Positions 1 through 21,990 of a stretch of 23,101 nucleotides of DNA are shown one piece after another (position 1 is the first letter of the stretch; each line of letters opens with the position of its first letter). Below the pieces are notes generated by a model that was given only the letters and a program-made list of their open reading frames with translations, ran no database searches and was not told the origin of the DNA. Location: IMG/VR virus record IMGVR_UViG_2698536506_000012. One strand, 5' to 3'. Source of the stretch: a virus (lineage: Duplodnaviria > Heunggongvirae > Uroviricota > Caudoviricetes). The position numbers were made by a program, and so were the translations under genes.

Positions 1-483
1 ATGACGAAGAAAAAAGCACATAAACCTGGTTCAGCGACCATCGCGCTTAACAAGCGCGCCCGTCACGAATACTTTATCGAAGAAGAGTTCGAAGCGGGAC
101 TTGCCCTGCAAGGCTGGGAAGTTAAATCCCTGCGCGCAGGAAAAGCCAATATCAGCGACAGCTACGTCCTTCTGCGTGACGGAGAGGCATTTCTGTTTGG
201 CGCTAACATCACGCCAATGGCCGTGGCCTCCACGCATGTGGTGTGCGATCCTACCCGTACCCGCAAGTTACTTCTCAACCAGCGCGAACTGGACTCATTG
301 TACGGTCGCGTCAATCGAGAAGGCTATACCGTAGTGGCGCTCTCCCTGTACTGGAAAAATGCCTGGTGCAAAGTGAAAATCGGCGTCGCCAAAGGTAAGA
401 AACAGCACGATAAACGTTCAGATATCAAAGAGCGCGAATGGCAGGTGGATAAAGCACGTATCATGAAAAACGCCCACCGTTAA
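1..483 (+). CDS. smpB: SsrA-binding protein SmpB, complete (160 aa)
   Basis: ATG at 1-3 and stop at 481-483. The translation ([25 protein letters not shown]...[10 protein letters not shown]) matches enterobacterial SmpB as I recall it, and the gene sits immediately upstream of ssrA as in E. coli. Confidence 0.96.
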
Positions 484-677
484 ACCTGCACTCCAATTAT
501 TGACCAGTTCCTCACCGCGCCTCCCTCTCCGGCGGCGCGAATGAACATCTTATTGGCTATCACATCCGACACAAATGTTGCCATCCCATTGCTTAATCGA
601 ATAAAAATCAGGCTACATGGGTGCTAAATCTTTAACGATAACGCCATTGAGGCTGGTCATGGCGCTCATAAATCTGG

Positions 678-683
678 TATACT
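678..683 (+). promoter_or_regulatory. Candidate -10 hexamer (TATACT) of the ssrA promoter
   Basis: TATACT lies about 15 nt upstream of the mature tmRNA 5' end, consistent with a short 5' leader removed by processing. I could not find a convincing -35 element at 17 bp spacing. Confidence 0.3.
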
Positions 684-697
684 TACCTTTACACATT

Positions 698-1060
698 GGG
701 GCTGATTCTGGATTCGACGGGATTTGCGAAACCCAAGGTGCATGCCGAGGGGCGGTTGGCCTCGTAAAAAGCCGCAAAAAATAGTCGCAAACGACGAAAA
801 CTACGCTTTAGCAGCTTAATAACCTGCTTAGAGCCCTCTCTCCCTAGCCTCCGCTCTTAGGACGGGGATCAAGAGAGGTCAAACCCAAAAGAGATCGCGT
901 GGAAGCCCTGCCTGGGGTTGAAGCGTTAAAACTTAATCAGGCTAGTTTGTTAGTGGCGTGTCCGTCCGCAGCTGGCAAGCGAATGTAAAGACTGACTAAG
1001 CATGTAGTACCGAGGATGTAGGAATTTCGGACGCGGGTTCAACTCCCGCCAGCTCCACCA
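698..1060 (+). ncRNA. ssrA: tmRNA (SsrA, 10Sa RNA), mature 363 nt
   Basis: Starts GGGGCTGATTCTGGATTCGACGGG and ends GGTTCAACTCCCGCCAGCTCCACCA, giving the tRNA-like acceptor/T-arm with encoded CCA. It contains the internal tag reading frame. Confidence 0.95.
787..819 (+). other. tmRNA tag-peptide reading frame (ANDENYALAA, stop)
   Basis: GCA AAC GAC GAA AAC TAC GCT TTA GCA GCT TAA read directly from the sequence; this is the canonical E. coli degradation tag. Confidence 0.9.
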
Positions 1061-1178
1061 CTTTTGATAGGACCACAACCGGACAGAGACTATAAAAACA
1101 GTCACTTACGGACACTGACCAGACAGCGTTCTGACCAGAAAAAGACAAAAATATACACACAGAATGCACGTGCATTTC

Positions 1179-1216
1179 AAAAAAGCCTCTGATTATGAAG
1201 TCAGAGGCTTTTCTGT
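1179..1216. terminator. Bidirectional rho-independent terminator between ssrA and the prophage late operon
   Basis: Stem GCCTCTGA (1185-1192), loop TTATGAAG, stem TCAGAGGC (1201-1208). An A-run lies 5' and TTTTCTGTTT 3' on the + strand, so both strands read hairpin followed by U-tract. Confidence 0.65.
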
Positions 1217-1259
1217 TTGTAACTAAGGGTAACAATTCAGCATGATGCATACTTACCAA

Positions 1260-1823
1260 TTACGTAACGTCAAACGCTCGAACTGAAGCCAAATCCTCCA
1301 GATTATTCAGTTCTTCCTTCATCTCTCGCTGACGGAAATAAATTTCATCATTGCGATCAACCTGCGCATGAAGCATTGCCGTAAGTAGTTCATCCAGTTG
1401 TTGCATTGACAACTTTACCTGCTGATTAACAGCATCACCCCACGTCATGACGTCCCGTGCTGTGTCGGATTTCGATGCCATCACCACCGGATAAAGACGG
1501 GCCATCGAATCCGGTCCCCCATTCCAGCTATGGCCGTTCCATTCAAAAATGAATGGCTGCGCTTCCTGTTCTGTACGCCATGCTTCAATTTCCCGGCGTT
1601 TGGCTGCTTTTGCTGCTTCCAGCATCTCTGACGTGACGGTGAACGGCGTTATTTCTCCCCATCTCCCGCTTTGCAGCTCCTGCCAGACTCGCTGCCCTGT
1701 CTCTGCTGTATCCGTGGCAGTTGCCGTATACGGAACCGGTTCATCCATGCCATCAAACAACACCCCACAGTCAATCGCGCCATTTTCAAGATAACGCGCA
1801 TTTTCGATGCGTTTTATTTCCAT
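1260..1823 (-). CDS. Tail fibre assembly/chaperone protein, DUF4376-like (about 187 aa)
   Basis: ATG at 1823 with AGGTG 5 nt upstream; stop TAA at 1262-1260. The C-terminal half (EMLEAAKAAKRREIEAWRTEQE...WGDAVNQQVKLSMQQLDELLTAMLHAQ) follows the pattern I recall for DUF4376 fibre chaperones, and it lies immediately 3' of a fibre gene. The ORF-track start at 1856 overlaps the upstream gene and is less likely. Confidence 0.7.
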   Translation of the reverse strand: MEIKRIENARYLENGAIDCGVLFDGMDEPVPYTATATDTAETGQRVWQELQSGRWGEITPFTVTSEMLEAAKAAKRREIEAWRTEQEAQPFIFEWNGHSWNGGPDSMARLYPVVMASKSDTARDVMTWGDAVNQQVKLSMQQLDELLTAMLHAQVDRNDEIYFRQREMKEELNNLEDLASVRAFDVT

Positions 1824-1830
1824 AAAACAC

Positions 1831-3255
1831 CTACGCAATACGTATGAACAAACCAATCATGACACTGGCTGACCCGGCAGACCCGAGCCCATCGCCTGAC
1901 AGTGCCCGATACGACCCCGGCATACCACCACCAGAACCCCGCACATATACGGAAACGCTGTCGTTATATCCAACCCCGCTACCGGTCGTGCCGTGACACA
2001 TAAATTCAACCGCGCTCAGGCGTGAACCCGGATAGCTGTAACCGCGTTTTATCCGGCGGTCGGTGTCTGCGTCTCCCTTACCGTTATAAGCCGCCAGTAC
2101 AAGGCTGCCTGCACCGTACCAGCCGTCCGTGGTACCGGGAGCAATACCGGACAGAAGATAGATAATGTCCTGTGAGGTAATCTTCAGATTTTCCCAGCCA
2201 GTCAGATAACCATTACCTGTTGTCCAGTAGCGGTTGTAATAAACATCGCCATTAATACCGTAGAAAATAATGGCCTTTGCTGTATATCGCGGCTCCGGTG
2301 GATTATTGCGTGCCTCAACCCACCGGATGCGGACCATCCCGTTAAACAACACACCTCCGGATATGATTTTACTGTCACCCTCAACAAAATATTCACCCGG
2401 CGTCGCATTCCTTACCCAGGACAGAAAATCATCCTCTGTGTTAAAACGGATACGCTCTGCGGGCAAAAAAATATGCCCAAAACCAAATGCACCGGGTGTC
2501 GCCAGACGGCCTTCAGTCCGGTCACGAATGTCGCTCTGTGGCGTCATTGTGGCTGCGCTTTTCAGTCCAAGATTATCACGGGATTCCTGCTGAGCCTCTT
2601 CACCTTCATCAGCCAGCTCTGATAAACGATTCGCCGTTTTCAGTGTCGCAGATAACGCAGTATCAATATCCTCCCTGACATGCTCTGCATCAGATGCGGC
2701 CTTTTTCGCGGCTTCAGCATCCTGCCTGACCTCTGCGGCGGTATCCTCAACCTGTGAGACCAGAGTTTCGGCCTGTTGTTTACCCTCCGCAACCGCGTCG
2801 GCGTTCTGCTGAACACCTTCCACCAGTTTTTTTACATCTTCTTTTGCCCGGGCGGCAGCGTCTGCATGTTGCCCTGCCTGTCGTTCGCTTTCTGTTGCAG
2901 TTTCCGCGCTCTGCTGCGCCTGCGCCACCATTTCCTCAAATCGTTTGACGACATCCGGCTTCAGGTCACCTTCATCGATGGCTGTCAGAAAATCATTCAG
3001 CGTGCCGGGCTTTGAATCGTGGTAAACCGAAATATCACCGACACAGTATTCCCTTTCAATACACGACCGAAGATAAACTTCATATTTTCCGGTCTGAGCT
3101 TCAAAAGCATATTCTCCTGCCGGACCTGTCACCACTGTAGCCACCGTTCTCATGACCACTGCGGATGTATTCTGTCGGGCTTTCAGAAGAATATGATGAC
3201 CGGACATAGGACGGCCAGCGCCATCAGCAAGAATCCCTGAGATGAGTGTGGACAT
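1831..3255 (-). CDS. Second side tail fibre protein (about 474 aa) with a Stf-like N-terminal anchor domain
   Basis: ATG at 3255; the ORF-track start at 3324 is a TTG. The N-terminus (MSTLISGILADGAGRPMSGHHILLKARQNTS...[12 protein letters not shown]...) aligns by eye with the Stf N-terminus in this window ([31 protein letters not shown]...[12 protein letters not shown]). It continues into a charged, probably coiled region and a distinct Gly/Tyr-rich C-terminal domain. Confidence 0.8.
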   Translation of the reverse strand: MSTLISGILADGAGRPMSGHHILLKARQNTSAVVMRTVATVVTGPAGEYAFEAQTGKYEVYLRSCIEREYCVGDISVYHDSKPGTLNDFLTAIDEGDLKPDVVKRFEEMVAQAQQSAETATESERQAGQHADAAARAKEDVKKLVEGVQQNADAVAEGKQQAETLVSQVEDTAAEVRQDAEAAKKAASDAEHVREDIDTALSATLKTANRLSELADEGEEAQQESRDNLGLKSAATMTPQSDIRDRTEGRLATPGAFGFGHIFLPAERIRFNTEDDFLSWVRNATPGEYFVEGDSKIISGGVLFNGMVRIRWVEARNNPPEPRYTAKAIIFYGINGDVYYNRYWTTGNGYLTGWENLKITSQDIIYLLSGIAPGTTDGWYGAGSLVLAAYNGKGDADTDRRIKRGYSYPGSRLSAVEFMCHGTTGSGVGYNDSVSVYVRGSGGGMPGSYRALSGDGLGSAGSASVMIGLFIRIA

Positions 3256-3295
3256 AAATTTTTCCCCAAAAAAGCCAGCTTTCGCCGGCAATGCT

Positions 3296-3877
3296 TTAAC
3301 TGACAGGTTGCTGCGGCCACTCAATTTCCGGCGCTAAAGATGTATCAACCCGGTTCAACAACACCCGATACTTCTTCCAGGCCGCCAGCAACGAGGTTTC
3401 TTCCTCCGTTGCAATTTCCAGATCTGCAGCATCCTGAAGCGGTGAAATATGCTCACTGGCTACCTGCATCAGGCTGTTTTTTGTTTCTTCCGCCTCCCGG
3501 ATCCGGAACAGTTTTTCTGCTTCCGTATCCTTCACCCAGGCTGTGCCGTTCCACTTCTGATATTCCCCTCCCGGCGATAACCAGGTAACATTTTCCGGTA
3601 ACGGACCAGGTTCAGAAATAAATAATGCATCCCCTGATGCCACGTCATAGACGGTTTTACCCCGATGGTCTTCAACGAGATGCCACGATGCCTCATCACT
3701 GTTGAAAACAGCCACGAAGCCAGCCGGAATATCTGGCGGTGCAATATCGGTACTGTTTGCTGGCAGACCTGTATGAGGTGGAATGTATGCATCACCTTCA
3801 CCAATAAATTCATTGGTTCCGGCCAGCAGATTATAAATTTTTATGGTCCGTGGTAGTTCACTCATTCTGAATGCCAT
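3296..3877 (-). CDS. tfa: Tail fibre assembly protein Tfa (193 aa)
   Basis: [54 protein letters not shown]... closely matches lambda Tfa as I recall it. ATG at 3877 overlaps the stf stop (TAATG). Confidence 0.93.
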
Positions 3878-6201
3878 TATGCAAGCCTCACAATATAGTT
3901 AAATGCGATGTTTTTAACGGTGTTTTCCGCGTTACCCGCAGCGTCAACAGTAATGGTATGTCCGTGTGAACCAATACTGAAAGAATGGGCATGAGCACCG
4001 ATAACAACCGGATGCTGGTGCGCACCAATACCAACTGTATGCGCATGTGCACCGGCACTCACGGCTGTACCGGACAATGAGTGACTGTGGTTGCCCTGGC
4101 TGTCCGTTTTCGATAAATAAGCAATACCCTGTGTGTTGGTTCCTTTAACTGTGGATAAACTTCCTGTAATGGTTGCTGTTCCATACTGACTCCAGCCAGA
4201 ACTGTTCATCCTTAAACCACTTGTGTGGGCATGAGCACCCGCGGCCCCTGTTGAACCGCTCAGACTGTGAGCATGAGCCCCCGTGTTATTCGTCGATTTG
4301 GTGCCGTAATCGAAACTGCCTGTTGTTTTCGTCCCGTAATCAAACGACGATGTGGTTTTCGTCCCCAAATCCGTACCGGATGCACTGGCACTGTGGGTGT
4401 GCGACTTAATTCCATCCTGTTCCTGAGACAATACAGCACGACCGCTGGCGGGTTTCCCCTTGATTGTCCAGCCTCGCATATCAGGAAGCACACCCGATGG
4501 ATACGCGACAGCAAGTTTTGGGTAGGCTGATTTGTCAAACGCCTGCCCCTGCATCAGGACGTAGCCAGACGGAACGATATCTGATGGCCACGGGATCGGC
4601 GCACCTGCCGGAAAGGCCGAATTCTCTCCGGCCCCAAGGTATTCAAGAACATCTGCAACGGAATTTTTTGCCAGAATATCCCTGCCAACCTGAGTCAGTT
4701 CAGTCAGGCTGGCGGCATCATTTTCCGTAAAATACGGTAATTTATTTTTCGCCGTGGAAAGCCCTGCCAGCGCCGTCAGTGTCGCATTCTTCGGTTGTTT
4801 ACCCGCAAGCGCGTTAGTCATGGTGGTAGCAAAATCTGGATCATTCCCGAGCGCTGCGGCCAGTTCATTCAGCGTATTCAGTGCGTCAGGTGACGCGTCG
4901 ATAACATCTGCAATCGCGGCCAGTACAAAATCGGTGTTCGCAATCTGGGTATTGTTTGTTCCCCTGAGCGCGGTTGGTGCTGTTGGCGTTCCGGTCAGTG
5001 CCGGACTGTCCAGTGGGGCTTTTCTGTTCGTTTCATCCATTACCACCTTAACCGCCTTTGGCGTTGCAGCAAGCGTTTCAGACGTGCTGTTGGTTGCACT
5101 GCTGAGCTGCACTATCCCCTTTCTCGTTGTGTCCGCATCCTCAAGCGCGACAGCTGAAGCTATATCTTCTGCACGTTTTGCCGAATTTTCTGCACGTATT
5201 GCCGCCGCTTCTGCCGCACTTTTGCTCTGCGATGCTGATACCGCACTTCCCGCAGCCTCTGTCGCCTTCGTGGATGCCGTTGACGCACTCCCCGCCGCCG
5301 CTGTTTTTGCGTCTGCCGCGGCAGAAGCGCTCCGTTCCGCTGCTGTTTCAGATGACCTGGCATTCGTCTCGGACGTTTTTGCCGCCCTGGCAGAATTTTC
5401 TGCCGCCGTTGCCGAGGAAGCTGCACGACCGGCACTTGATGATGCGTTCGTTTCTGATGATTTTGCTGCCTCTTTTGAGGCCACCGCATCTCGTGCTGAA
5501 GTGGCGGCCTCTGACGCTTTCGTGGTCGCGGTGGAGGCAGACGTGGCGGCTGATTGTTGTGACGCTGCAGCATTCGTTTCTGACGTTTTCGCCGCACCGG
5601 CACTGGTGGCCGCCGCGTTTTTTGAGGACTCTGCGGCTGCGGCACTTTTTTCCGCTTCAGTGGCCTTTGCTGATGCCGCTTCTGCGCCGGAGGACGCTTC
5701 CTGAGCTGACGATGCAGCCTGTCCGGCGGACGTGCTGGCGGCGCGTGCTGAGTCAGTTGCATCAGTCACAAGGGCCGCGACCTGAGCAGCTGATGCACTG
5801 GCATCGCCGGCTGATTTCTTCGCGTCTGCCGTACTCTGTGCCACCACGGACGCGTTACGCGCCACCTCTTCCACCATCAGTTCAAGACGGCGCAGCACCT
5901 CCGGCCGGGCATCATCCTCCGTCATGGCACAGAGAAAATCATTCAGTGTCCCCGGTTGTGAATCTTCATACACGGTGATGGTCCCGGCGTGCGATGGTGG
6001 AAAACCGTCAACCTGCAGGATGACACTGTACTGACCGTACTCCACATCCATGCTGTAACGCCCGGCTTCATCCGGATTCTCTGAGCCCACCGTGTTCACC
6101 ACCACCGTGGTGCTGTTACGTCTGGCTTTCAGCTGAATGGTGCAGTTCTGTACCGGTTTTCCTGTGCCGTCTTTCAGGACTCCTGAAATCTTTACTGCCA
6201 T
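3877..6201 (-). CDS. stf: Side tail fibre protein Stf, full length (774 aa)
   Basis: ATG at 6201; the ORF-track start at 6207 is a GTG two codons upstream. The N-terminus [26 protein letters not shown] matches lambda Stf. It has a long Ala/Ser/Thr-rich shaft and a C-terminal region with repeated GAHAHS, GNHSHS and GSHGHT (HxH) motifs. Confidence 0.93.
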
Positions 6202-6212
6202 ATTCACCCCAC

Positions 6213-6238
6213 AAAAAAGCCCACCGGTTCCGGCGGGC
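6213..6238 (-). terminator. Rho-independent terminator downstream of lom
   Basis: On the - strand: AGCCCGCCGG-AA-CCGGTGGGCT (one mismatch) followed by TTTTTT. It sits between the lom stop (6266) and the stf start (6201). Confidence 0.6.
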
Positions 6239-6265
6239 TGTCATAACACTGTGTTACCTGGCTAA

Positions 6266-6886
6266 TCAGAATTTATAACCGACCCCAACGATGAATCCGT
6301 CAGTACGCCAGTCGCCACTGCCGGAGCCTTCATAAGCAATATCAACAACGACGGACGCTGCCGGATTAATCTGTATACCTGCACTCCACGCCACTGAGGT
6401 ATGCCGCATTGCTCTTTCGTCCCTGGCGGTGGTCGTCTCTTTCATATACCCGGGAGTGATTTCCGTCTTACGGTAATCCCTTGTACTGCCGGACCACCGA
6501 CTGTGAGCCACTCCGGCCATGGCGTACGCACTGACCTGCTTACTGATTTGTAAAACCGGTCCGGCCATCACGCTCACATAACGTCCACGCAGGCTCTCAT
6601 AGTGAAACGTATCCTCCCCGGTCATCACTGTGCTGCTCTTTTTCGACGCGGCGAACCCCAGGGAAGCCATCACCCCCACACTGTCCGTCAGTTCATAACG
6701 GTACTTCACGTTAATCCCTTTCAGATGACTCACACCGGTATCCCCGCCCGACAACGACGGCAATGTACCCGGTTTCACCTGAAAATAGCCCACCGTAAAC
6801 GTACCATGTCCACCTTCCGCACGGGCCGGAGTGACTGTCACCGCAAGTGCGGCAAAGACAGCAACGGCAATACACACATTACGCAT
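6266..6886 (-). CDS. lom: Outer membrane protein Lom (Ail/Lom family, 206 aa)
   Basis: ATG at 6886 with a GAGGTGA ribosome-binding site. It has an N-terminal signal peptide (MRNVCIAVAVFAALAVTVTPARA) and a beta-barrel-like alternating sequence ending ...GFIVGVGYKF. Size and position between J and stf are as in lambda. Confidence 0.92.
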   Translation of the reverse strand: MRNVCIAVAVFAALAVTVTPARAEGGHGTFTVGYFQVKPGTLPSLSGGDTGVSHLKGINVKYRYELTDSVGVMASLGFAASKKSSTVMTGEDTFHYESLRGRYVSVMAGPVLQISKQVSAYAMAGVAHSRWSGSTRDYRKTEITPGYMKETTTARDERAMRHTSVAWSAGIQINPAASVVVDIAYEGSGSGDWRTDGFIVGVGYKF

Positions 6887-6911
6887 CGTTCACCTCTCAC
6901 TGTTTTATAAT

Positions 6912-6931
6912 AAAACGCCCGTTCCCGGACG
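6912..6931 (-). terminator. Weak hairpin plus U-tract (possible attenuator) between J and lom
   Basis: On the - strand: CGTCCG-GGAA-CGGGCG (6-bp stem with one G-U pair) followed by TTTTATTAT. Confidence 0.35.
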
Positions 6932-6947
6932 AACCTCTGTAACACAC

Positions 6948-9900
6948 TCAGACCACGCTGATGCCCAGCGTCTGTTTCTTAATCACCATAACCTGCACAT
7001 CGCTGGCAAACGTATCCGGCGGAATATCTGCCGAATGCCGTGTGGACGTAAGCGTGAACGTCAGGATCACGTTTCCCCGACCCGCTGGCATGTCAACAAT
7101 ACGGGAGAACACCTGTACCGCCTCGTTCGCCGCGCCATCATAAATCACCGCACCGTTCATCAGTACTTTCAGATAACACATCGAATACGTTGTCCTGCCG
7201 CTGACAGTACGCTTACTTCCGCGAAACGTCAGCGGAAGCACCACTATCTGGCGATCAAAAGGATGGTCATCGGTCACGGTGACAGTACGGGTACCTGACG
7301 GCCAGTCCACACTGCTTTCACGCTGGCGCGGAAAAGCCGCACTCGCCGCCTTTACAATGTCCCCGACGATTTTTTCCGCCCTCAGCGTACCGTTTATCGT
7401 ACAGTTTTCAGCTATCGTCACATTACTGAGCGTCCCGGCGTTCGCATTCACGTTACCACTGATATCGGCATTTTTCGCCGTCAGCCGGCCATCAGGTGTC
7501 AGGGAAAATGCCGGAGGATTACCGCCGCTGGTAATGGTGGGGGCCGTCAGGCGTTTCAGGAACACGTCATTCATGAATATCTGATTGCCCTGCGCCACAA
7601 ACATCGGCGTTTCATTCCCGTTTGCCGGGTCAATAAACGCGATACGATTGGCGGCAACCAGAAACTGGCTCAGTTTGCCTTCCTCTGTATCCTCCATGCT
7701 GAGGCCAAGTCCCGCGACATAATGTCTGCCGTCTCTGGTCTGCTCAATTTTGACGCCCCACATGGCATTCCATTTATCACTGGCGTCTTTCCACTCTTTC
7801 GAAAACTCATCCAGTCTGCTGGCGTTATCCTCCGTCAGGTCGACTTTTTCCAGCAACTCCTTGCCGAGATGAGATTCGGTTATCTTGCCTTTGAAAAAAT
7901 CCAGGTAACCTTCCGCATCATCGCTCGCCCGACCGACAGCCTCCACGAATGCCGATTTGCCAACGGTGTTCACACTGCGAACGTAAAAATAATAATCATG
8001 GCCCGGCCTGATATTGATACTGGCGGCTATCCAGTACAGCGCCGTACCAAGATAACGCGCGCTGGTTTCAACCTGCCTGATATCGGTAATCTGCTTTTCC
8101 GAGAACCAGAACTCAAACTGCACTGTCGGGTCATATACAGCCAGTTTCGGGACCGCCGTTATCTGAAAATAGCCCGGCGTCAGCTCAATCTGTGACGGTG
8201 CAGCCGGTGCGGCAATCCGGAAAGAGACCGACGCCGCATCGCCCTGTTGCCCCCACGCATTTACCGCCCGGACCGTCAGCGTGTAATGCCCCAGCGCCAG
8301 TTGCCTGAAGCGGTATGTGGTTTCCGTCGTCCTGGCCGTGCTGACCAGCCGCTCACTGCCGTCATCCGCTGCCACGGTCAGGCGAAGCAGGAAGCTCACG
8401 CCCTTCACCACCTTCGGCGTGTCCCAGCGCGCCAGCACCTGATACTCCCCGCTGTCTGCGGTGACTTCGGCGGTCAGGTGCTGCACCGCTGGCGGCGTGA
8501 CACCATTCACCGTGCCGCTCTGGTCGCCGTCAAAGTGCGCCCCGTTATCCACGATGGCCTCTTTTTCCGGTACATGCTGCACGGCGGTGATGGCATACGT
8601 GCCGTCGTCGTTCTCACGGATACTCACGCAGCGGAACAGGCGCTGGCGCAACGTCGGCAGCTTCAGCCCCCATACGCTGTATTCAGCAACGCCGTCAGGA
8701 ACACGGCTCACTTTCACCTTCACGCCGTCGGTGACGGACTGAACCTCCACGCTGACCGGACTCCCCTGCCCGTCAACCAGGCTTATCAGCGTGGTGCCGG
8801 AAGATGGCAGCGTGATTTCACGGTCGAGCGTCAGCGTCCGGGTCTGGCTGTTTACCGCCAGCACGCGCCCGCCGGTGCTGATACCGGCATAGTCATCATC
8901 ACAGATTTCAATGACATCGCCCGGCACATGGCGAAGCCCTTCTGCGCCCACGCTGAAGTCCACGGTCTGCGTTTCCAGCAGTTCTGTTTTAATCAGCCAC
9001 AGCCCGGCGCGGTGTGCCTGCCCCCGGCTGGTACAGCCAAAAGCATCCATCTTCGTGACGTTACGACCGTAACGGGCAATGGCCTGCGTATCCTCCACAA
9101 GCTCCGTCGCCGTCTCCCAGCCGTTATCCGGGTCAATCCAGTTCACCTCCACGGCATTATGGCGGTCTTTCAGGGCGCTGAAGCTGTAACGGAACGGCGC
9201 GCCATCATCCGGTATCACCACATTGCTGCGGTTATAGGTCCACACCTTATCCGACGGTCTGTCCTGCACGAACGTCAGCGTCTGTCCGTTCCATACCGGC
9301 ATACAGCGCATCGCCGAGCAGAAATCGCTGAGCACATCCCACGCCTTACGCTGTGATGCCAGATAAGCATTACAGGTGATACGCGGCTCCGTGCCACCAT
9401 AGCCATCCGGTACTGACTGGTCACAGTACTGACCGATAACATACAGGGTCCATTTATCCACCTCCGCTGCCCCGAGACGTTGTCCCATGCCATAACGCGG
9501 ATGGGTGAGCATGTCCCACAGGCACCAGGCCATGTTGTTACTGTATGCCGGTTTAAGTGTCCCGTCCCAGATACCGCTGTACTGCCGCGTCTGTGGATCA
9601 TAGTTCGACGGTACCTGCAGAATGCGTCCACGAAGATGGTAATTACGGCCCACCTGCTGGCTGCCAAACTGCTCTGAATCCACCTGTACGCCGACCAGTG
9701 CCGTGTTCGGGTATCCCTGTTTCACATCGATGATTTCGGTGTATGACGACCAGAGCGTTTTATTCTGCAGCTGGTCTGTGGTGCTGTCAGGTGTCATCCT
9801 GCGCATCCGGATACTGAACGGGCGCGGCGGCAGGTTATCCACCACCACCGAGGCCAGATACTGCGAGGTGGTTTTACCCTTAATGGTGATGTCTTTTTCT

Positions 9901-10346
9901 GTCACCCAGGCGCCGTTACGCTGGATCTGGGCCAGTAATCTCACTTCTGACGGATTGCGGTCCCCCTGAGACGTGGTTTCCACCAGAGCCTGCACACCAA
10001 ACGTAAAACGCAGGCGGTCGATATTTTCTGATGTGATGGTCCGGGTGATCGGCGTGTCATATTTCACTTCCGTACCCAGTACCGTCTCGGAGCCGGAGGA
10101 CTCAAAACCCTCCGGCGGAGTCTGCTCCTGCTCACCGGCACGGAACACCACCGTGACCCCGGAGAAATTGGCCTTACCTTCACTGTCCAGCACCGGCGTA
10201 CTGTTCAGCAACACGCTTTTCATTCCGTCCACCGGTCCTTCAATCGGCCCTTCACTGATCGCATCAATCACGCTCAGTAACTGCGTGGATTTCAGGTTAT
10301 CTTTCGCTTCGCGAGGAGTGTGCCCCTTGCTGCCACCTTTACCCAT
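6948..10346 (-). CDS. J: Central tail fibre / host specificity protein J (1132 aa)
   Basis: ATG at 10346. The N-terminus [24 protein letters not shown] and the overall length match lambda J, and it lies between I and lom. Confidence 0.95.
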
Positions 10347-10406
10347 TTATCTGGCTCCATTAACAACAAAACCGCCCGGAGGCGGTTTCACATAAAACGT
10401 TTTACA

Positions 10407-11054
10407 TTAGCGACCAATCACCACAACCTGACCACCATCACCCTCATCAGCAGTACTGATACTCTGTGAAATCACACGCGACCCCACACGCATCTCACCA
10501 TACAGTACCGGTAACGGATTCCCCTGGGCGATCATATTATCCAGCGAGGAAAAAAAGGTGTTCTGTTTGCCGTTATCCGCGGACTCCATGGACGGCGTTT
10601 TGATGGCCGGTGTCAGCATCTGCGCTATCCCGCCGAGGATCATACTGGCCCCGGCGGCATACATCCCCGTAAGTGCTGCCGCACCCAGCCAGCCCGCGGG
10701 GTTCCACCAGGCTACCGCAACAACCACAGCACCCAGGATGGTCTGAAAAATTCCGCCATGCTTTGCACCGGCAAGCCGGGGAACAATGTGGATCACCGCA
10801 CCGTCCGGTAACGGCTCATGGAGCTGTGCCGTTACCCCGGACTCGCTGACATCCCGCCCGGCGATACGTACCTGATACCAGCCGTCACTCAGTTTCTGAC
10901 GAAACGACGGAAGTTGTGTGGCCAGCGCCCGGATGGCTTCAGCCCCCGTTTTCACACGAAGGTCGATACGGCGACCAAATCGTTGCAAATCCCCGTAAAG
11001 GCAGAGGCGTGCCATGCCCGGTGCCGCCAGAGGGAGTGTGTGCGTCGCTGCCAT
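10407..11054 (-). CDS. I: Tail assembly protein I (215 aa)
   Basis: ATG at 11054. MAATHTLPLAAPGMARLCLYGDLQRFGRRIDLRVKTGAEAIRALATQL... and the C-terminus ...EGDGGQVVVIGR match lambda I. Its 5' end overlaps the 3' end of K, as in lambda. Confidence 0.9.
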   Translation of the reverse strand: MAATHTLPLAAPGMARLCLYGDLQRFGRRIDLRVKTGAEAIRALATQLPSFRQKLSDGWYQVRIAGRDVSESGVTAQLHEPLPDGAVIHIVPRLAGAKHGGIFQTILGAVVVAVAWWNPAGWLGAAALTGMYAAGASMILGGIAQMLTPAIKTPSMESADNGKQNTFFSSLDNMIAQGNPLPVLYGEMRVGSRVISQSISTADEGDGGQVVVIGR

Positions 11055-12407: not shown

Positions 12408-12737
12408 TCATACCACGACCTGTTCAAAATTTGCGGTTACCGTGACCCACAGCGCCCCCACACTGGACGACCATTTACGGCAGACCACCCGGACAGGTGT
12501 CCAGCCATAAGGCGGTGTCCACTGAAACGCCCTGACCCCACCGTGCCGGGCCAGAAACGCTTCCAGCGCCTGATGCTCCCCTTTACGGACACGGATCGTG
12601 ACACTGTACGTTGGCAACAGAGGATTCAGTCCCGCCGGACGACGCTGTTCATAACCATCACCCAGTTTAACTGTCACCACTTTTGGCTCTGAATCCACCT
12701 TCATATCCGGACGGACTTTCCAGCTAAATATCTCCAT
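12408..12737 (-). CDS. M: Minor tail protein M (109 aa)
   Basis: ATG at 12737 overlaps the H stop (ATGA coupling). MEIFSWKVRPDMKVD...WTPPYGWTPVRVVCRKWSS...FEQVV matches lambda M. Confidence 0.9.
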   Translation of the reverse strand: MEIFSWKVRPDMKVDSEPKVVTVKLGDGYEQRRPAGLNPLLPTYSVTIRVRKGEHQALEAFLARHGGVRAFQWTPPYGWTPVRVVCRKWSSSVGALWVTVTANFEQVVV

Positions 12738-16516: not shown

Positions 16517-17257
16517 TTAACCACCATTAACGGTAATACTGGCCACTGCGACCTGTGCGCCACCCGCTGTCATCCCGACAATCGAGGTGCTTCCCGCTTT
16601 CACACCTTTCACCGTGGCCACCATGCCACTCAGTGTAACCGTGGCGATCTCAGGAGAGGATGACGCCACACTCACCGTTTTATCAGATGCATCTTCCGGT
16701 ACTGTGCTGAATGTCAGCGTCGTCGTTGCCCCCACCCTGACACTGGCAGATGCCGGTGCCACCGTCAGACCGGTCACGCTAACAAGCCCGGTGCCTTCCT
16801 CTGCCAGATACGGACGTCCCACACCGCTGATTTTCACAGTGCGGGTCATCACCTCTTTAGAGGTAACAGTTTTCCCCAGCGAGCTCAGCCAGCCACGGAA
16901 AACATCAACAGTGCCGTTGGGATATTTGATACGAAACGCACAGACTTCACCAGAGTCGAACAACTGAACCAGTTTTTTCTGCCCGCTGTCACCCGGACGC
17001 CAGGCCAGCGTCGCCGAAGTATCACCGACGGATTTTTGCCCCTGGGTTGTCGTTTTCCAGTCAGCATTTTCATCATCGAGATAATCGTCATCTTCCGCAT
17101 CTGCAGTCATTTCGCCCGGCTGTAAATCCTTCACCATCGCAAGACGCAGCCAGTCAGTATCTGACAACGGAGCCGCAAAGGCGTCCCCTTTGCCGGTATA
17201 CATCCAGAACGTCGTCCCCGCGCCCTTCGTTTTTTCCAGTGGATTCGGTGTTGGCAT
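16517..17257 (-). CDS. V: Major tail protein V with a C-terminal Ig-like (Big_2-type) domain (246 aa)
   Basis: ATG at 17257 with AAGGAG 6 nt upstream. MPTPNPLEKTKGAGTTFWMY...NGTVDVFRGW matches lambda V. The ORF-track start at 17275 is a TTG. Confidence 0.92.
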   Translation of the reverse strand: MPTPNPLEKTKGAGTTFWMYTGKGDAFAAPLSDTDWLRLAMVKDLQPGEMTADAEDDDYLDDENADWKTTTQGQKSVGDTSATLAWRPGDSGQKKLVQLFDSGEVCAFRIKYPNGTVDVFRGWLSSLGKTVTSKEVMTRTVKISGVGRPYLAEEGTGLVSVTGLTVAPASASVRVGATTTLTFSTVPEDASDKTVSVASSSPEIATVTLSGMVATVKGVKAGSTSIVGMTAGGAQVAVASITVNGG

Positions 17258-20097: not shown

Positions 20098-20128
20098 AAA
20101 AACACAAACGGGCCGCATCACGACCCGT
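20098..20128 (-). terminator. Stem-loop plus U-rich tract at the 3' end of D
   Basis: On the - strand: ACGGGUCG-UGAUG-CGGCCCGU (8-bp stem with one G-U pair; the loop contains the putative D stop TGA) followed by TTGTGTTTTT, upstream of the E ribosome-binding site. Confidence 0.4.
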
Positions 20129-20390
20129 TTTTTNNNNNNNNNNNNNNNNNNNNNNNNNNNNNNNNNNNNNNNNNNNNNNNNNNNNNNNNNNNNNNNNNNN
20201 NNNNNNNNNNNNNNNNNNNNNNNNNNNNNNNNNNNNNNNNNNNNNNNNNNNNNNNNNNNNNNNNNNNNNNNNNNNNNNNNNNNNNNNNNNNNNNAACACT
20301 GATACCACTGGTACCTGTTGCGGTATACACCGGATCGCTTCCGGCAAAAATGCGCCCGTCCGCGCGCTTTTCTGTGGTGGTTTTAATCAT
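20118..20390 (-). CDS. D: Head decoration protein D, interrupted by an assembly gap
   Basis: ATG at 20390 with an AGGAG ribosome-binding site. The N-terminus MIKTTTEKRADGRIFAGSDPVYTATGTSGISV resembles lambda D (...GNSDPAHTATAPGG...), and it sits between C and E. The frame and length across the N-run are unknown, so the stop at 20118 is tentative. Confidence 0.65.
   Translation of the reverse strand: MIKTTTEKRADGRIFAGSDPVYTATGTSGISVXXXXXXXXXXXXXXXXXXXXXXXXXXXXXXXXXXXXXXXXXXXXXXXXXXXXXXKNGS
20134..20294. other. Assembly gap (161 N)
   Basis: A run of N in the sequence, beginning directly after a T6 homopolymer. Confidence 0.99.
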
Positions 20391-20430
20391 TTTCTCAGTC
20401 TCCTGATTTATCTGAATCACGGATCCCCGC

Positions 20431-21990
20431 TTACGGCATACTCATCAGCAGTTCTTCTTCCCCGTTCCCGGCAGTTCCGCCACCGGAAACGGCACTGGCG
20501 GCATGCTGTGCCATGAAGCGCTCAAAAAGTGTTACCTGTGACGGTTGCGATACTGATGGCGCAGCTGCCAGCAGTGTTTTCGCCTGCTCCACTGTCATTC
20601 CCGGNNNNNNNNNNNNNNNNNNNNNNNNNNNNNNNNNNNNNNNNNNNNNNNNNNNNNNNNNNNNNNNNNNNNNNNNNNNNNNNNNNNNNNNNNNNNNNNN
20701 NNNNNNNNNNNNNNNNNNNNNNNNNNNNNNNNNNNNNNNNNNNNNNNNNNNNNNNNNNNNNNNNNNNNNNNNNNNCGGTGCCGCTGCCAGTAACGTTTTC
20801 GCCTGCTCCACCGTCATTCCCGGCTGTTCAGCCAGCGTCCGTGCCAGTTGTTCACGTCCTTTTGCTTCCGGAAGTGCCACAATCTGATCGCCTGTGCTGT
20901 CAGTACCGGCAACCGGTGCTGCCGCCAGTAATGTTTTTGCCTGCTCAACTGACATTCCCTGCTGACCTGCCAGCATCTGCGCCAGTTTTTCGCGTCCTTT
21001 CGCCTCCTGACAATTCAGGATCCCCATCACGCGCTGATTTTCCTGGGACACCGCTTCAGCAACGGTGAGATTTTTTGTTGTCATCGTATTCTCCTGTGTA
21101 ACAGAGTCGTTCAGAGCAGAAACCATTACATCAACGGCATCTGCAGCATTAATCAGTTGATCAGCCAGGCCTGTATCAATGCCTGCCTGACCGTCATAAA
21201 CGGCAGCCTCGGTATTCATCACCACCTCTGAACTCAGCCCCGTATAAAGTGCCACCTTGTCGACAAACATCCGGCGGGCCTCATCAATACGGCGCTGAAA
21301 ATCCGCACGCACACCTGTCGGCAACGCCTGAATACTGTTGCCGTCAACCTTGTGCTGCCCGGAATAAATCAGCGTGATATCCACGCCTTCCTGTGCCAGT
21401 TGTTTCTCGTAACTGGTGTGCGCCATCATCACACCAATCGAACCAATTTTTGCCGTCTGCGTGACCAGCCGACGCGTACAGGCCGCCGCCAGCAACATGG
21501 CGGCTGAACAGGCCATGTCATTACACAGCGCCCACACGGGCTTCTGTTCCCGCAGACGGTAAATCATGTCAGCACAGTCAAACGCCCCGGCAGCCTGACC
21601 GCCCGGGCTGTCGATATCCAGTAAAATACCGCGTACATCCGGGTCGTTCACCGCTGACTTAAGACGGGCAGTCAGACCGTCATAACCGGTCATACCGGAA
21701 TATGGCCGCAGGGTACCCATTTTATGTACCAGCGTGCCGCTCACCGGCAGAATGGCAATCCCATTTTTCACCTGGTAACTCTTTACCGGACGCGGACCAC
21801 CAGTCATATAATCGGTAACCGCCAGCTGCATACCATCGGCATCAAGCTGAACGGCCTGCTGCGGAACGGCAAGGCTGCCCGCCCCAATTTCCTTACCCAG
21901 TGCGCAAAAGAAAACCCGCGCATAGGCGGGTTCCAGTAAAAGCGGCTCATTAAATGCCATCGCGGCAATATGTGATAAATTACAGCGCAT
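20431..21990 (-). CDS. C: Head maturation protease / scaffold C (S49/ClpP-like; Nu3-like scaffold region in its C-terminal part), gap-interrupted
   Basis: ATG at 21990. The N-terminus ...HIAAMAFNEPLLLEPAYARVFFCAL... and ...PVWALCNDMACSAAMLLAAACTRRLVTQTAKIGSIGVMMAH...ITLIYSGQHKVDGN... match lambda C. ...RVMGILNCQEAKGRE... corresponds to the lambda ...RIMGILNCEEAHGRE... region. Confidence 0.9.
   Translation of the reverse strand: MRCNLSHIAAMAFNEPLLLEPAYARVFFCALGKEIGAGSLAVPQQAVQLDADGMQLAVTDYMTGGPRPVKSYQVKNGIAILPVSGTLVHKMGTLRPYSGMTGYDGLTARLKSAVNDPDVRGILLDIDSPGGQAAGAFDCADMIYRLREQKPVWALCNDMACSAAMLLAAACTRRLVTQTAKIGSIGVMMAHTSYEKQLAQEGVDITLIYSGQHKVDGNSIQALPTGVRADFQRRIDEARRMFVDKVALYTGLSSEVVMNTEAAVYDGQAGIDTGLADQLINAADAVDVMVSALNDSVTQENTMTTKNLTVAEAVSQENQRVMGILNCQEAKGREKLAQMLAGQQGMSVEQAKTLLAAAPVAGTDSTGDQIVALPEAKGREQLARTLAEQPGMTVEQAKTLLAAAPXXXXXXXXXXXXXXXXXXXXXXXXXXXXXXXXXXXXXXXXXXXXXXXXXXXXXXXXXPGMTVEQAKTLLAAAPSVSQPSQVTLFERFMAQHAASAVSGGGTAGNGEEELLMSMP
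20560..20965 (-). repeat. Tandem in-frame 138-bp (46-codon) repeats inside C; at least 3 copies spanning the gap
   Basis: The block GCCAGTAA(C/T)GTTTT(T)GCCTGCTC(C/A)AC(C/T)G(T/A)CATTCC recurs starting at 20786 and 20924 (exact 138-bp spacing), with a further copy ending at 20604. The protein motif (Q/P)GM(S/T)VEQAKTLLAAAP occurs three times. Confidence 0.75.
20605..20775. other. Assembly gap (171 N) inside the C repeat region
   Basis: A run of N flanked on both sides by copies of the 138-bp repeat. Confidence 0.99.

Follow-up and report, generated by a model that had tools for sequence, protein, structure and literature searches.

Why does a lambda-like prophage carry a second side tail fibre gene, together with a second chaperone gene, behind the pair that it shares with lambda? 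The question is raised by one end of the IMG/VR virus record IMGVR_UViG_2698536506_000012, a stretch of 23,101 nucleotides (nt; the window) that corresponds at 99.8% identity to the chromosome of Escherichia coli strain C5, a cattle isolate (NZ_CP010122.1). Here the lambda-type side tail fibre gene stf (stf1) and its assembly gene tfa are followed by another fibre gene (stf2) and a gene for a DUF4376-family protein. Judged from sequence comparison, this second unit is very probably an accessory fibre cassette of myovirus type, bearing a P2-type collar domain, that was captured behind lambda's own stf-tfa. The best overall explanation of the locus combines this capture with a working role for both fibres, and is given a probability of roughly 0.55. 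The original prediction of two consecutive fibre-plus-chaperone modules was correct in position and strand, and RefSeq annotates the same genes in C5. The features of the two units, in the order of transcription, are:

3877..6201, minus strand: stf1, Ur-lambda-type side tail fibre of 774 amino acids (aa), WP_072301589.1, identified by Pfam and by alignment with lambda
5920-6201, minus strand: Stf1 collar domain, aa 1-94, identical to PDB 9e7m chain Ta
3296..3877, minus strand: tfa, lambda-type tail fibre assembly protein for Stf1, 193 aa (Pfam Caudo_TAP, E=1.7e-43)
3274..3289, minus strand: modest terminator-like hairpin in the tfa-stf2 spacer, GCCGGC-GAAA-GCTGGC followed by T6 (terminator scan)
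1831..3255, minus strand: stf2, second fibre of 474 aa, WP_073521232.1 (Pfam phage_tail_N, E=1e-52)
2971..3255, minus strand: Stf2 collar domain, aa 1-95, subtype B2, placed by alignment to Ur-lambda StfN (PDB 9e7m)
2476..2970, minus strand: Stf2 linker and charged, Ala-rich region, approximately aa 96-260 (32% D/E/K/R, 19% Ala)
1831..2475, minus strand: Stf2 C-terminal domain, approximately aa 261-474, putative receptor-binding domain with the C-terminal motif YRALSG...IGLFIRIA
1260..1823, minus strand: DUF4376-family protein of 187 aa, WP_061351881.1, predicted Stf2 assembly chaperone (Pfam DUF4376, PF14301, E=1.5e-15)

The first unit is that of Ur-lambda. The lom-stf-tfa block (window 3315-6951) shares 98.5% nucleotide identity with lambda, and the stf1 frame is intact and free of a frameshift, as in Ur-lambda. 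Stf1 matches the Pfam families phage_tail_N (E=9e-75), Phage_fiber_2 and Collar as well as Phage_fiber repeats. The tfa gene, whose start overlaps the stf1 stop codon, is recognized by this position and by its Caudo_TAP (PF02413) match; it is 98.5% identical to lambda tfa as far as window position 3315, and the homology to lambda ends 19 nt short of its stop codon. The remaining tail is not that of lambda. The homologues of gpM and gpV are only 56% and 57% identical to their lambda counterparts, and J is 86-100% identical to lambda J, with identity increasing towards the 3' end. The lom-stf-tfa block is therefore regarded as a mosaic insert.

The fibres of both units begin with a homologous domain. 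BLASTP aligns residues 1-191 at 37% identity (E=1e-29), which is longer than the approximately 110 residues originally claimed, and gives no other alignment beyond these residues, in line with the view that shafts and C-termini are unrelated. The described differences in composition are also found in residue counts. Stf1 has an Ala/Ser-rich shaft (63% Ala+Ser+Thr at residues 135-400) and eight HxH motifs within residues 601-746, whereas Stf2 has no HxH motif, a charged region (32% charged residues at positions 100-260) and a Gly/Tyr-rich C-terminal domain (23% Gly+Tyr). In Ur-lambda Stf, residues 1-91 form a six-stranded beta domain and a helix, and a linker of about ten residues joins this collar domain to a trimeric coiled coil (PMC12617516). 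Residues 1-93 of Stf2 align with the lambda StfN collar (PDB 9e7m) without a gap (E=2e-18). In the BLASTP comparison the similarity extends to residue 191 and so takes in the proximal part of the lambda Stf coiled coil. On the model of lambda Stf, residues 96-260 approximately are read as a coiled-coil shaft.

Comparison of the collar domains divides them into two clades. Clade A contains the collars of lambda Stf, of Stf1 from E. coli strain 2013C-3264 and of the single Stf of Shigella prophages. Clade B contains those of all accessory fibres, which are 65-99% identical among themselves and 43-47% identical to clade A. Stf1 of the window belongs to clade A, the collar subtype of lambda tails, but Stf2 does not. 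Its collar is assigned to subtype B2: identity is 86-92% with P2-like prophage collars (91% with PapRG), 73-75% with B1 collars and only 43-44% with clade A. Thus the idea of an N-terminal anchor shared by both fibres holds for the homology of the domain, but not for the type of anchor, as a clade A and a clade B collar are only 43-47% identical. Because the collars belong to different clades, the same attachment site should not be assumed for Stf1 and Stf2.

The origin of the second unit is indicated by the position of its relatives. These include the loci of a survey of 80 IMG/VR loci related to Stf2 (L032-L111), classed by their neighbouring genes, and of a scan of a genome-contig collection with one genome per species, which gave 11 loci. 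In contractile-tailed prophages, the pair of fibre and DUF4376 genes usually closes the series of late genes, before the attachment (att) site. It follows gene D in P2-like prophages (PapRG-04-4, UMNF18, A10 and the prophage of fibre cluster P0001) and the baseplate fibre with its Tfa in Mu-like prophages (phiP27 L54-L57, A8, STEC346 and a Salmonella prophage); the same position is occupied in Rac-SA53-like prophages (Rac-SA53 tail1-4, GmM062 and a Yersinia similis prophage). The window pair has its nearest relatives, with amino acid identities of 92-94% for the fibre and 88-91% for the chaperone, after gpD in the P2-like prophage PapRG-04-4 and, in the Rac-SA53-like GmM062, behind the first fibre-chaperone pair. 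Another P2-like prophage has, behind gpD, a fibre of cluster P0001 (368 member sequences) that is 93% identical to Stf2. Lambda-like prophages of Shigella and some of E. coli have a shaft and C-terminus of Stf2 type, with a DUF4376 partner, as their sole side fibre, after lom. The spacing of the pair varies: in myovirus prophages of Salmonella (L010, 8636-10001) and Yersinia (L014, 8638-10001), about 1.4 kilobases (kb) separate the first chaperone gene from the PF08400-type fibre gene, where the E. coli counterpart has 23-40 nt.

In the 80 surveyed loci the collar of the DUF4376-paired fibre corresponds to the tail type. All 20 P2-like loci carry a B2 collar and all 10 Rac-SA53-like loci a B1 collar. 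B1 collars also occur in 10 of the 12 Mu-like loci, the other two being divergent members of clade B, and in 15 of 16 loci that show a myovirus-type fibre and Tfa upstream and are cut off beyond them (no collar was detected in the remaining one). The 17 lambda-like loci with one fibre all have an A collar. Only three lambda-like loci contain two fibres; their DUF4376-paired collars are B2, B2 and B1, and each stands behind a first fibre with an A collar. Two loci are unclassified, one with a B2 collar (L032) and one in which no collar was detected. The sole mismatches between collar subtype and tail type are the three two-fibre lambda-like loci, which include the window lineage (A plus B2).

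The collar also appears as the unit of exchange. The stf2 gene of C5 and its GmM062 homologue share 65-77% nucleotide identity in the first 285 nt and 93-100% thereafter, and the breakpoint at about nt 285 (about residue 95) coincides with the boundary between collar and linker. The single Stf of Shigella prophages consists of an A collar joined to a shaft identical to that of a B1 fibre. Breakpoints at the collar/linker boundary indicate that collars are exchanged as modules, with a subtype that goes with the tail type. The suggestion that a host-range cassette was captured at the prophage end is supported by the end of lambda homology near the tfa stop codon, by the att-proximal position of the relatives in myovirus prophages and by the rarity of the layout. 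A difference in base composition, which had been proposed as a check, is absent: the second module has a GC content of 0.50-0.52 and a GC content at third codon positions of 0.48, similar to stf1 and tfa, and a compositional anomaly was dismissed.

The double arrangement is rare. The whole 5.2-kb region was found in two of 5,426 complete E. coli genomes, those of C5 and 2013C-3264. Both prophages are located at ssrA, and the first fibre of 2013C-3264 is a different one of 1023 aa. The exact tfa-stf2 junction occurs in two further IMG/VR contigs, both of which end inside stf2. The 281 deposited phage records with this N-domain hold 283 places, two records having two places each; one of these joins two prophages in a single record, and the second was not inspected. 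Literature searches retrieved no description of a double Stf in lambdoid phages and none of PF08400 fibres in P2-like phages.

Two relatives of the arrangement deserve mention for their own structure. L032 (IMGVR_UViG_2703718846_000005) is a deletion derivative of the window lineage, in which a junction at locus position 9002-9004 fuses the equivalent of window position 21127, within the head protease gene, to 3195, at about codon 20 of stf2; about 18 kb of head and tail genes have been lost. L083 (IMGVR_UViG_2874945390_000002, 6297-10839) is an independent two-fibre lambda-like prophage with an A plus B1 combination. Its first fibre has an A collar, with a C-terminus and a Tfa of myovirus type, which suggests that a crossover inside the first fibre gene dragged the downstream module along. 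Its second fibre has a B1 collar and is paired with a DUF4376 protein, and a frameshift divides the fibre gene into two frames (304 + 117 aa); the fibre gene of single-fibre Shigella loci is split in a similar way.

Objections to the original prediction had been a lack of real similarity between the fibre N-termini, a fragmentary stf2, and membership of the second pair in a separate, degraded prophage. The N-termini are significantly similar, and Stf2 has the full length of its family, which comprises more than 1,100 protein clusters and mostly proteins of about 470-490 aa. The assumption of a pseudogene or fragment was rejected, as the 474 aa of Stf2 equal the length of its closest relatives. 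No second ssrA or att fragment accompanies the module, and the spacer to tfa measures 40 nt. The position at the extreme end of the prophage, adjoining ssrA, could suggest a remnant of a second prophage that once stood in tandem at this site. This explanation is effectively refuted, since the window contains a single copy of the ssrA 3' end, the 40 nt between tfa and stf2 include no att or integrase remnant, at least four genomes or contigs keep the junction, and in myovirus prophages, too, the module stands at the end of the late genes before att.

Two fibre-chaperone pairs with homologous N-termini might also represent switchable alternatives in the style of the invertible segments of Mu and P1, with one kind of fibre per particle. 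The anatomy of the locus is inconsistent with this explanation, which is highly improbable. Each gene is complete with an N-terminus of its own, and the two run in the same direction; by the same features the locus differs from the Mu G, P1 C and e14 pin systems. In Mu-type switching one constant N-terminal exon is shared, unlike the layout in the window. No open reading frame (ORF) of invertase size lies between or beside the fibre genes (positions 1-7000), and a search for long direct repeats, which did not extend to inverted ones, found none flanking them.

The captured cassette is thus set in a lambda-like tail operon, and it has to be asked whether Stf2 is used there. Incorporation of Stf2 into the virions of this prophage is something we infer throughout, and its chance is judged to be a little under even. 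Several findings are consistent with use. The stf2 and DUF4376 ORFs are intact in both C5 and 2013C-3264, the junction recurs in the two contigs that end inside stf2, and the module is built into the late operon. Between these strains the ratio of non-synonymous to synonymous substitution rates (dN/dS) is 0.17 for the DUF4376 gene; for stf2, with 18 non-synonymous against 23 synonymous changes, it is 0.24. J and the tail genes of the two prophages are only 75-82% identical, but the block from ssrA to stf1 is 92% identical between them, with 97% for stf2, 96% for tfa and 86% for the DUF4376 gene. As for the fibre itself, the shaft and C-terminus of Stf2 type also occur fused to P2 H-type (PF12571) anchors, which argues for a working binding module. 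The C-terminal 234 residues gave a confident AlphaFold2 model (predicted local distance difference test score, pLDDT, of 81), for which Foldseek detected no significant match in the PDB.

Further indications come from the first residues of the collar. The B2 collars in a lambda context (C5, 2013C-3264, L041 and L100) share T3, I8, A10, R15 and H20 (residues 1-20 of Stf2, window 3196-3255), whereas every B2 collar in a P2 context has V3, V8, T10, Y20 and a hydrophobic residue at position 15 (L, in one case V). The arginine that results from the L15R exchange resembles K15 of all A collars. The first 95 nt of stf2 are only 76% identical to the P2-type gene, which indicates that the 5' end of stf2 was replaced.

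The structure of the Ur-lambda tail shows what docking would involve. Twelve StfN copies, from four trimers, form a collar around the gpV/gpM junction, and contact with the tail is made only through the beta4-beta5 loop, to E63 of gpV and to K2, W6 and R80 of gpM (PMC12617516). The docking partners of this collar in the window are:

12408..12737, minus strand: gpM homologue, docking partner of the lambda Stf collar (Pfam Phage_min_tail)
16517..17257, minus strand: gpV homologue, major tail tube protein and the other docking partner (Pfam Phage_TTP_12, Big_2)

E63 of gpV and W6 of gpM are retained here, while K2 and R80 of gpM are replaced by E and T, respectively. A collar identical to that of lambda thus stands next to gpM and gpV proteins of only 56-57% identity, with two of four contacts changed. 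This indicates that the contacts tolerate variation.

Other observations weigh against a mounted Stf2. Collar subtype and tail type agree almost perfectly, which argues for tail-specific anchors, so that a B2 collar on a lambda-type tail may be a mismatch. Where the shaft and binding domain of Stf2 type serve as the sole side fibre of a lambda-like prophage, they carry an A collar in 17 of 17 cases. The two-fibre layout is confined to 2 of the 5,426 genomes, and the second fibre of L083 is frameshifted, although the single-fibre Shigella loci are split similarly. The low dN/dS could stem from functional copies in myovirus prophages that were transferred by recombination, and the five N-terminal substitutions have no statistical weight because they represent a single lineage. 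An anchor homology between Stf2 and gp40 of Vibrio phage XM1 was likewise set aside: the match (residues 1-204, E=7e-5) depends on the coiled coil and is gone when the N-domain alone is compared.

These observations can be accommodated by the possibility that the cassette is a passenger. Stf2 and its chaperone would be expressed and folded, but the B2 collar could not dock on a lambda-type tail, and the cassette would persist because it is young or is refreshed by recombination. This is a serious competitor, if a less probable one than the combination of capture and function. The exclusive occurrence of mismatched collars in three two-fibre loci of 80, with an A collar in every single-fibre lambda-like locus, speaks for it, as do the great rarity of the arrangement, the frameshift in L083, the decay of the window prophage lineage to L032 and the presence of the nearest cassette relatives in P2-like prophages. 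It is less easily reconciled with intact ORFs in C5 and 2013C-3264 and a junction kept in two contigs that end inside stf2, with dN/dS values of 0.17-0.24 between prophages whose J and tail genes have diverged to 75-82% identity, or with the lineage-specific N-terminal changes including L15R. Moreover, the split in L083 is the same as in single-fibre Shigella loci, hence not specific to second fibres. If Stf2 is unmounted, the locus is mosaic cargo at a prophage end.

The B2 subtype of the collar is that of P2-like prophages, and the module matched seven places in the C5 chromosome, which indicates related sequences elsewhere in the genome. It could therefore be imagined that the second module acts in trans and, upon co-induction, supplies fibres for a P2-like or Mu-like prophage or a tailocin of the same cell, by phenotypic mixing. 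This is purely speculative and very unlikely, as the module is located inside a lambda-like late operon without a promoter of its own and literature searches revealed no precedent.

The cassette very probably came into the lambda-like lineage through a recombination event immediately 3' of tfa. According to the favoured explanation, in which both fibres work, both units would be transcribed late, on the Q-antiterminated tail transcript that would end at the hairpin after the DUF4376 gene. Each chaperone would fold the trimer of its own fibre, starting at the C-terminus. Stf1 trimers would dock as in Ur-lambda, with four trimers providing 12 collar domains that ring the gpV/gpM junction. The Stf2 collar, homologous and of the same length, might take some of the four trimer positions, which would result in mosaic virions; alternatively, it might form a ring on another exposed tube-like segment, for example at the neck, as gp40 of Vibrio phage XM1 does. 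In either case a second specificity of primary adsorption would be added to those of Stf1 (OmpC in lambda) and J (LamB in lambda). Co-mounting and a dual side-fibre specificity, as first proposed, are plausible.

A more general model, which remains tentative and is considered rather unlikely in its full extent, regards StfN-type collar fibres with DUF4376 partners as a portable accessory-fibre system with a collar matched to the tail: A in lambda-like, B1 in Mu-like and Rac-SA53-like and B2 in P2-like prophages. The C5 lineage would then be re-adapting a P2-type fibre through its replaced 5' end, including L15R, and this fibre would share a 12-mer collar with Stf1 or build an additional ring at the neck. 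If this is true, natural siphovirus particles exist that carry two kinds of side fibre plus J, i.e. three receptor specificities. Side tail fibres set the adsorption speed and strain range of lambda-like phages and are swapped to retarget lambda-based delivery particles. A natural prophage with two collar-bearing fibres offers a test of collar mixing and of collar-tail specificity. It also suggests a testable rule for the transplantation of fibres between siphoviruses and myoviruses, namely that the collar subtype should follow the tail type and the exchange be made at about residue 95.

Among known systems, the Stf/Tfa pair of Ur-lambda (PDB 9e7m; Yu et al. 2025, PMC12617516) is essentially the same as the first unit (98.5% nucleotide identity, collar residues 1-94 identical) and resembles the second in its homologous collar, the similar start of the coiled coil and the downstream chaperone. 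However, Ur-lambda has one fibre gene, whereas the window adds a clade B fibre with an unrelated shaft and binding domain and a chaperone of an unrelated family. The Stx2e phage phiP27 (L54-L57) and Rac-SA53 (tail1-tail4) have the same terminal order of fibre, Caudo_TAP-type chaperone, PF08400-type fibre and DUF4376 protein, with collars 73-74% and chaperones 73-75% identical to those of the window. They differ in their baseplate-bearing contractile tails and in a first fibre without a detectable PF08400 N-domain, so that their two fibres have no common anchor type; in the window both fibres bear collars, on a non-contractile lambda-type tail. The accessory fibre after gene D of P2-like prophages (PapRG-04-4, UMNF18, P0001) shares the B2 collar and the DUF4376 partner with Stf2 and is 93-94% identical to it (PapRG-04-4, P0001), but belongs to a contractile-tail genome in which the sheath, tube and tape-measure genes separate the module from the H/G fibre genes. 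No P2-like prophage with this accessory fibre was found among deposited phage genomes, and no experimental work on it was found. The comparison thus draws attention to an accessory fibre that is common in P2-like and Mu-like E. coli prophages and on which no experimental study was found.

Two structurally characterized tails offer more distant parallels. In the Vibrio myophage XM1, 18 copies of the collar spike gp40 (PDB 7kjk) ring the neck at gp4/gp5 (PMC10457771). Like Stf2, gp40 begins with an immunoglobulin-like ring domain, about 100 residues long, and continues as a trimeric coiled coil; the weak match is the one given above (E=7e-5). It is attached to the neck and not to the tail tip, and homology of the anchors is not established, as the N-domain alone remains unmatched. 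The T5-like phage DT57C, a siphovirus, has LtfA and LtfB side fibres with two receptor specificities on a 12-copy LtfC collar around the tail tube (PMC12617516). In contrast to the window, where each fibre has its own collar and no branching adaptor is evident, a separate collar protein there anchors one branched fibre.

The chaperones of the two units were expected to be of different types, and this is the case: Caudo_TAP and DUF4376 are the respective families, and no similarity between Tfa and the DUF4376 protein was detected by BLASTP or by the profile-profile comparison of hhalign (probability 0.5%). The DUF4376 domain spans residues 70-176 (58 bits, against a cutoff of 25). The protein matches PHROG 1141, annotated 'tail fiber protein' (E=3.5e-83), has 1,742 relatives, almost all from Escherichia, and yielded an AlphaFold2 model with a pLDDT of 89. 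DUF4376 proteins have been shown by experiment to be required as fibre chaperones in the Alteromonas phage V22 and in Campylobacter CJIE1 prophages (PMC7289586, PMC7882524). V22 gp27 and the H-fibre chaperone of CJIE1 resemble the window protein in that the DUF4376 domain lies in the C-terminal part and the gene is located directly 3' of the fibre it serves. By this analogy the 1260-1823 protein is predicted to be the chaperone of Stf2. Its start codon lies 7 nt past the stf2 stop codon, and in every examined locus in which the downstream region is present, a DUF4376 gene follows a gene for a fibre or a J-like protein.

The fibres paired with DUF4376 proteins have the C-terminal motif YxALSG...IGLF[IV]RI[AE] in common, to which the YRALSG...IGLFIRIA of Stf2 belongs. 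Where the C-termini of proteins preceding DUF4376 were read, they end in ...LF[IV]R[IV][AVE], including that of a 1375-aa J-like protein of strain GB089. In this E. coli locus (L009, 8199-12913) the DUF4376 gene lies directly 3' of the J-like central fibre, which ends in ...YTALSG...GLFVRIE, similar to Stf2. DUF4376 chaperones therefore appear to serve extended J proteins, too. PHROG 1807 finds matches in both chaperones, in the N-terminal half of lambda-type Tfa and in the C-terminal half of the DUF4376 protein, which indicates that hybrid Tfa/DUF4376 chaperones exist elsewhere.

The setting of both units is that of a lambda-like late operon. The window opens with smpB (1-483), followed by ssrA, whose 3' end is the attachment site and marks the terminus of the prophage. 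The right end of the prophage starts directly after ssrA, and all its genes are on the minus strand. In the direction of transcription they encode the portal, an S49 protease/scaffold, the major capsid protein E, FI, Z, U, V, the G/T ORFs, H, M, L, K and I, followed by J, lom, stf, tfa, stf2 and the DUF4376 gene, so that Stf2 is placed downstream of J and lom within the tail operon. The remaining features of this region are:

698..1060, plus strand: ssrA, transfer-messenger RNA gene (tmRNA; ARAGORN, tag ANDENYALAA; RefSeq agrees)
1061..1259, minus strand: non-coding prophage arm from the att site to the last gene, with a terminator-like hairpin at 1181-1212 and then a T run
6266..6886, minus strand: lom, outer-membrane protein gene, a moron (Pfam Ail_Lom, E=2e-53)
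6948..10346, minus strand: J, central tail fibre, 1132 aa (RefSeq: gpJ)

The sequence 1061-1235 matches the ends of the temperate phage genomes PhiR12, phiES15 and CP-1639 at 77-81%. The hairpin at 1181-1212 has a predicted folding energy of -22.3 kcal/mol (z=-5.85), and none of 200 shuffled sequences was equally stable; the late operon likely ends there, after the DUF4376 gene. The terminator scan also detected hairpins on both sides of lom (6931-6916 and 6239-6218). Together, the terminator-like hairpins at 6916-6931, 6218-6239, 3274-3289 and 1181-1212 successively bracket lom, stf-tfa and the second module, and only the one at 1181-1212 is strong. Weak internal hairpins with a strong final one would suit a late transcript that is antiterminated and passes the internal ones. 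The hairpin at 3274-3289 was rejected as a strong terminator, its fold (-11.5 kcal/mol, z=-0.9) being unexceptional. It belongs to the 40-nt spacer between tfa and stf2, which contains a GGGG ribosome-binding site and is kept in strain 2013C-3264 and in the two IMG/VR contigs. A search upstream of stf2 for a sigma-70-like promoter gave a single hit, inside coding sequence, and thus no promoter.

The best nucleotide matches of the tail genes are with mEp460-type phages, at about 84%. In the head region, the GC content falls to 0.35-0.38 between 20001 and 21000, compared to about 0.53 elsewhere in the window. This stretch comprises a 100-aa ORF without a Pfam match (20118-20420) and the 3' part of the S49 protease/scaffold gene (20431-21990).

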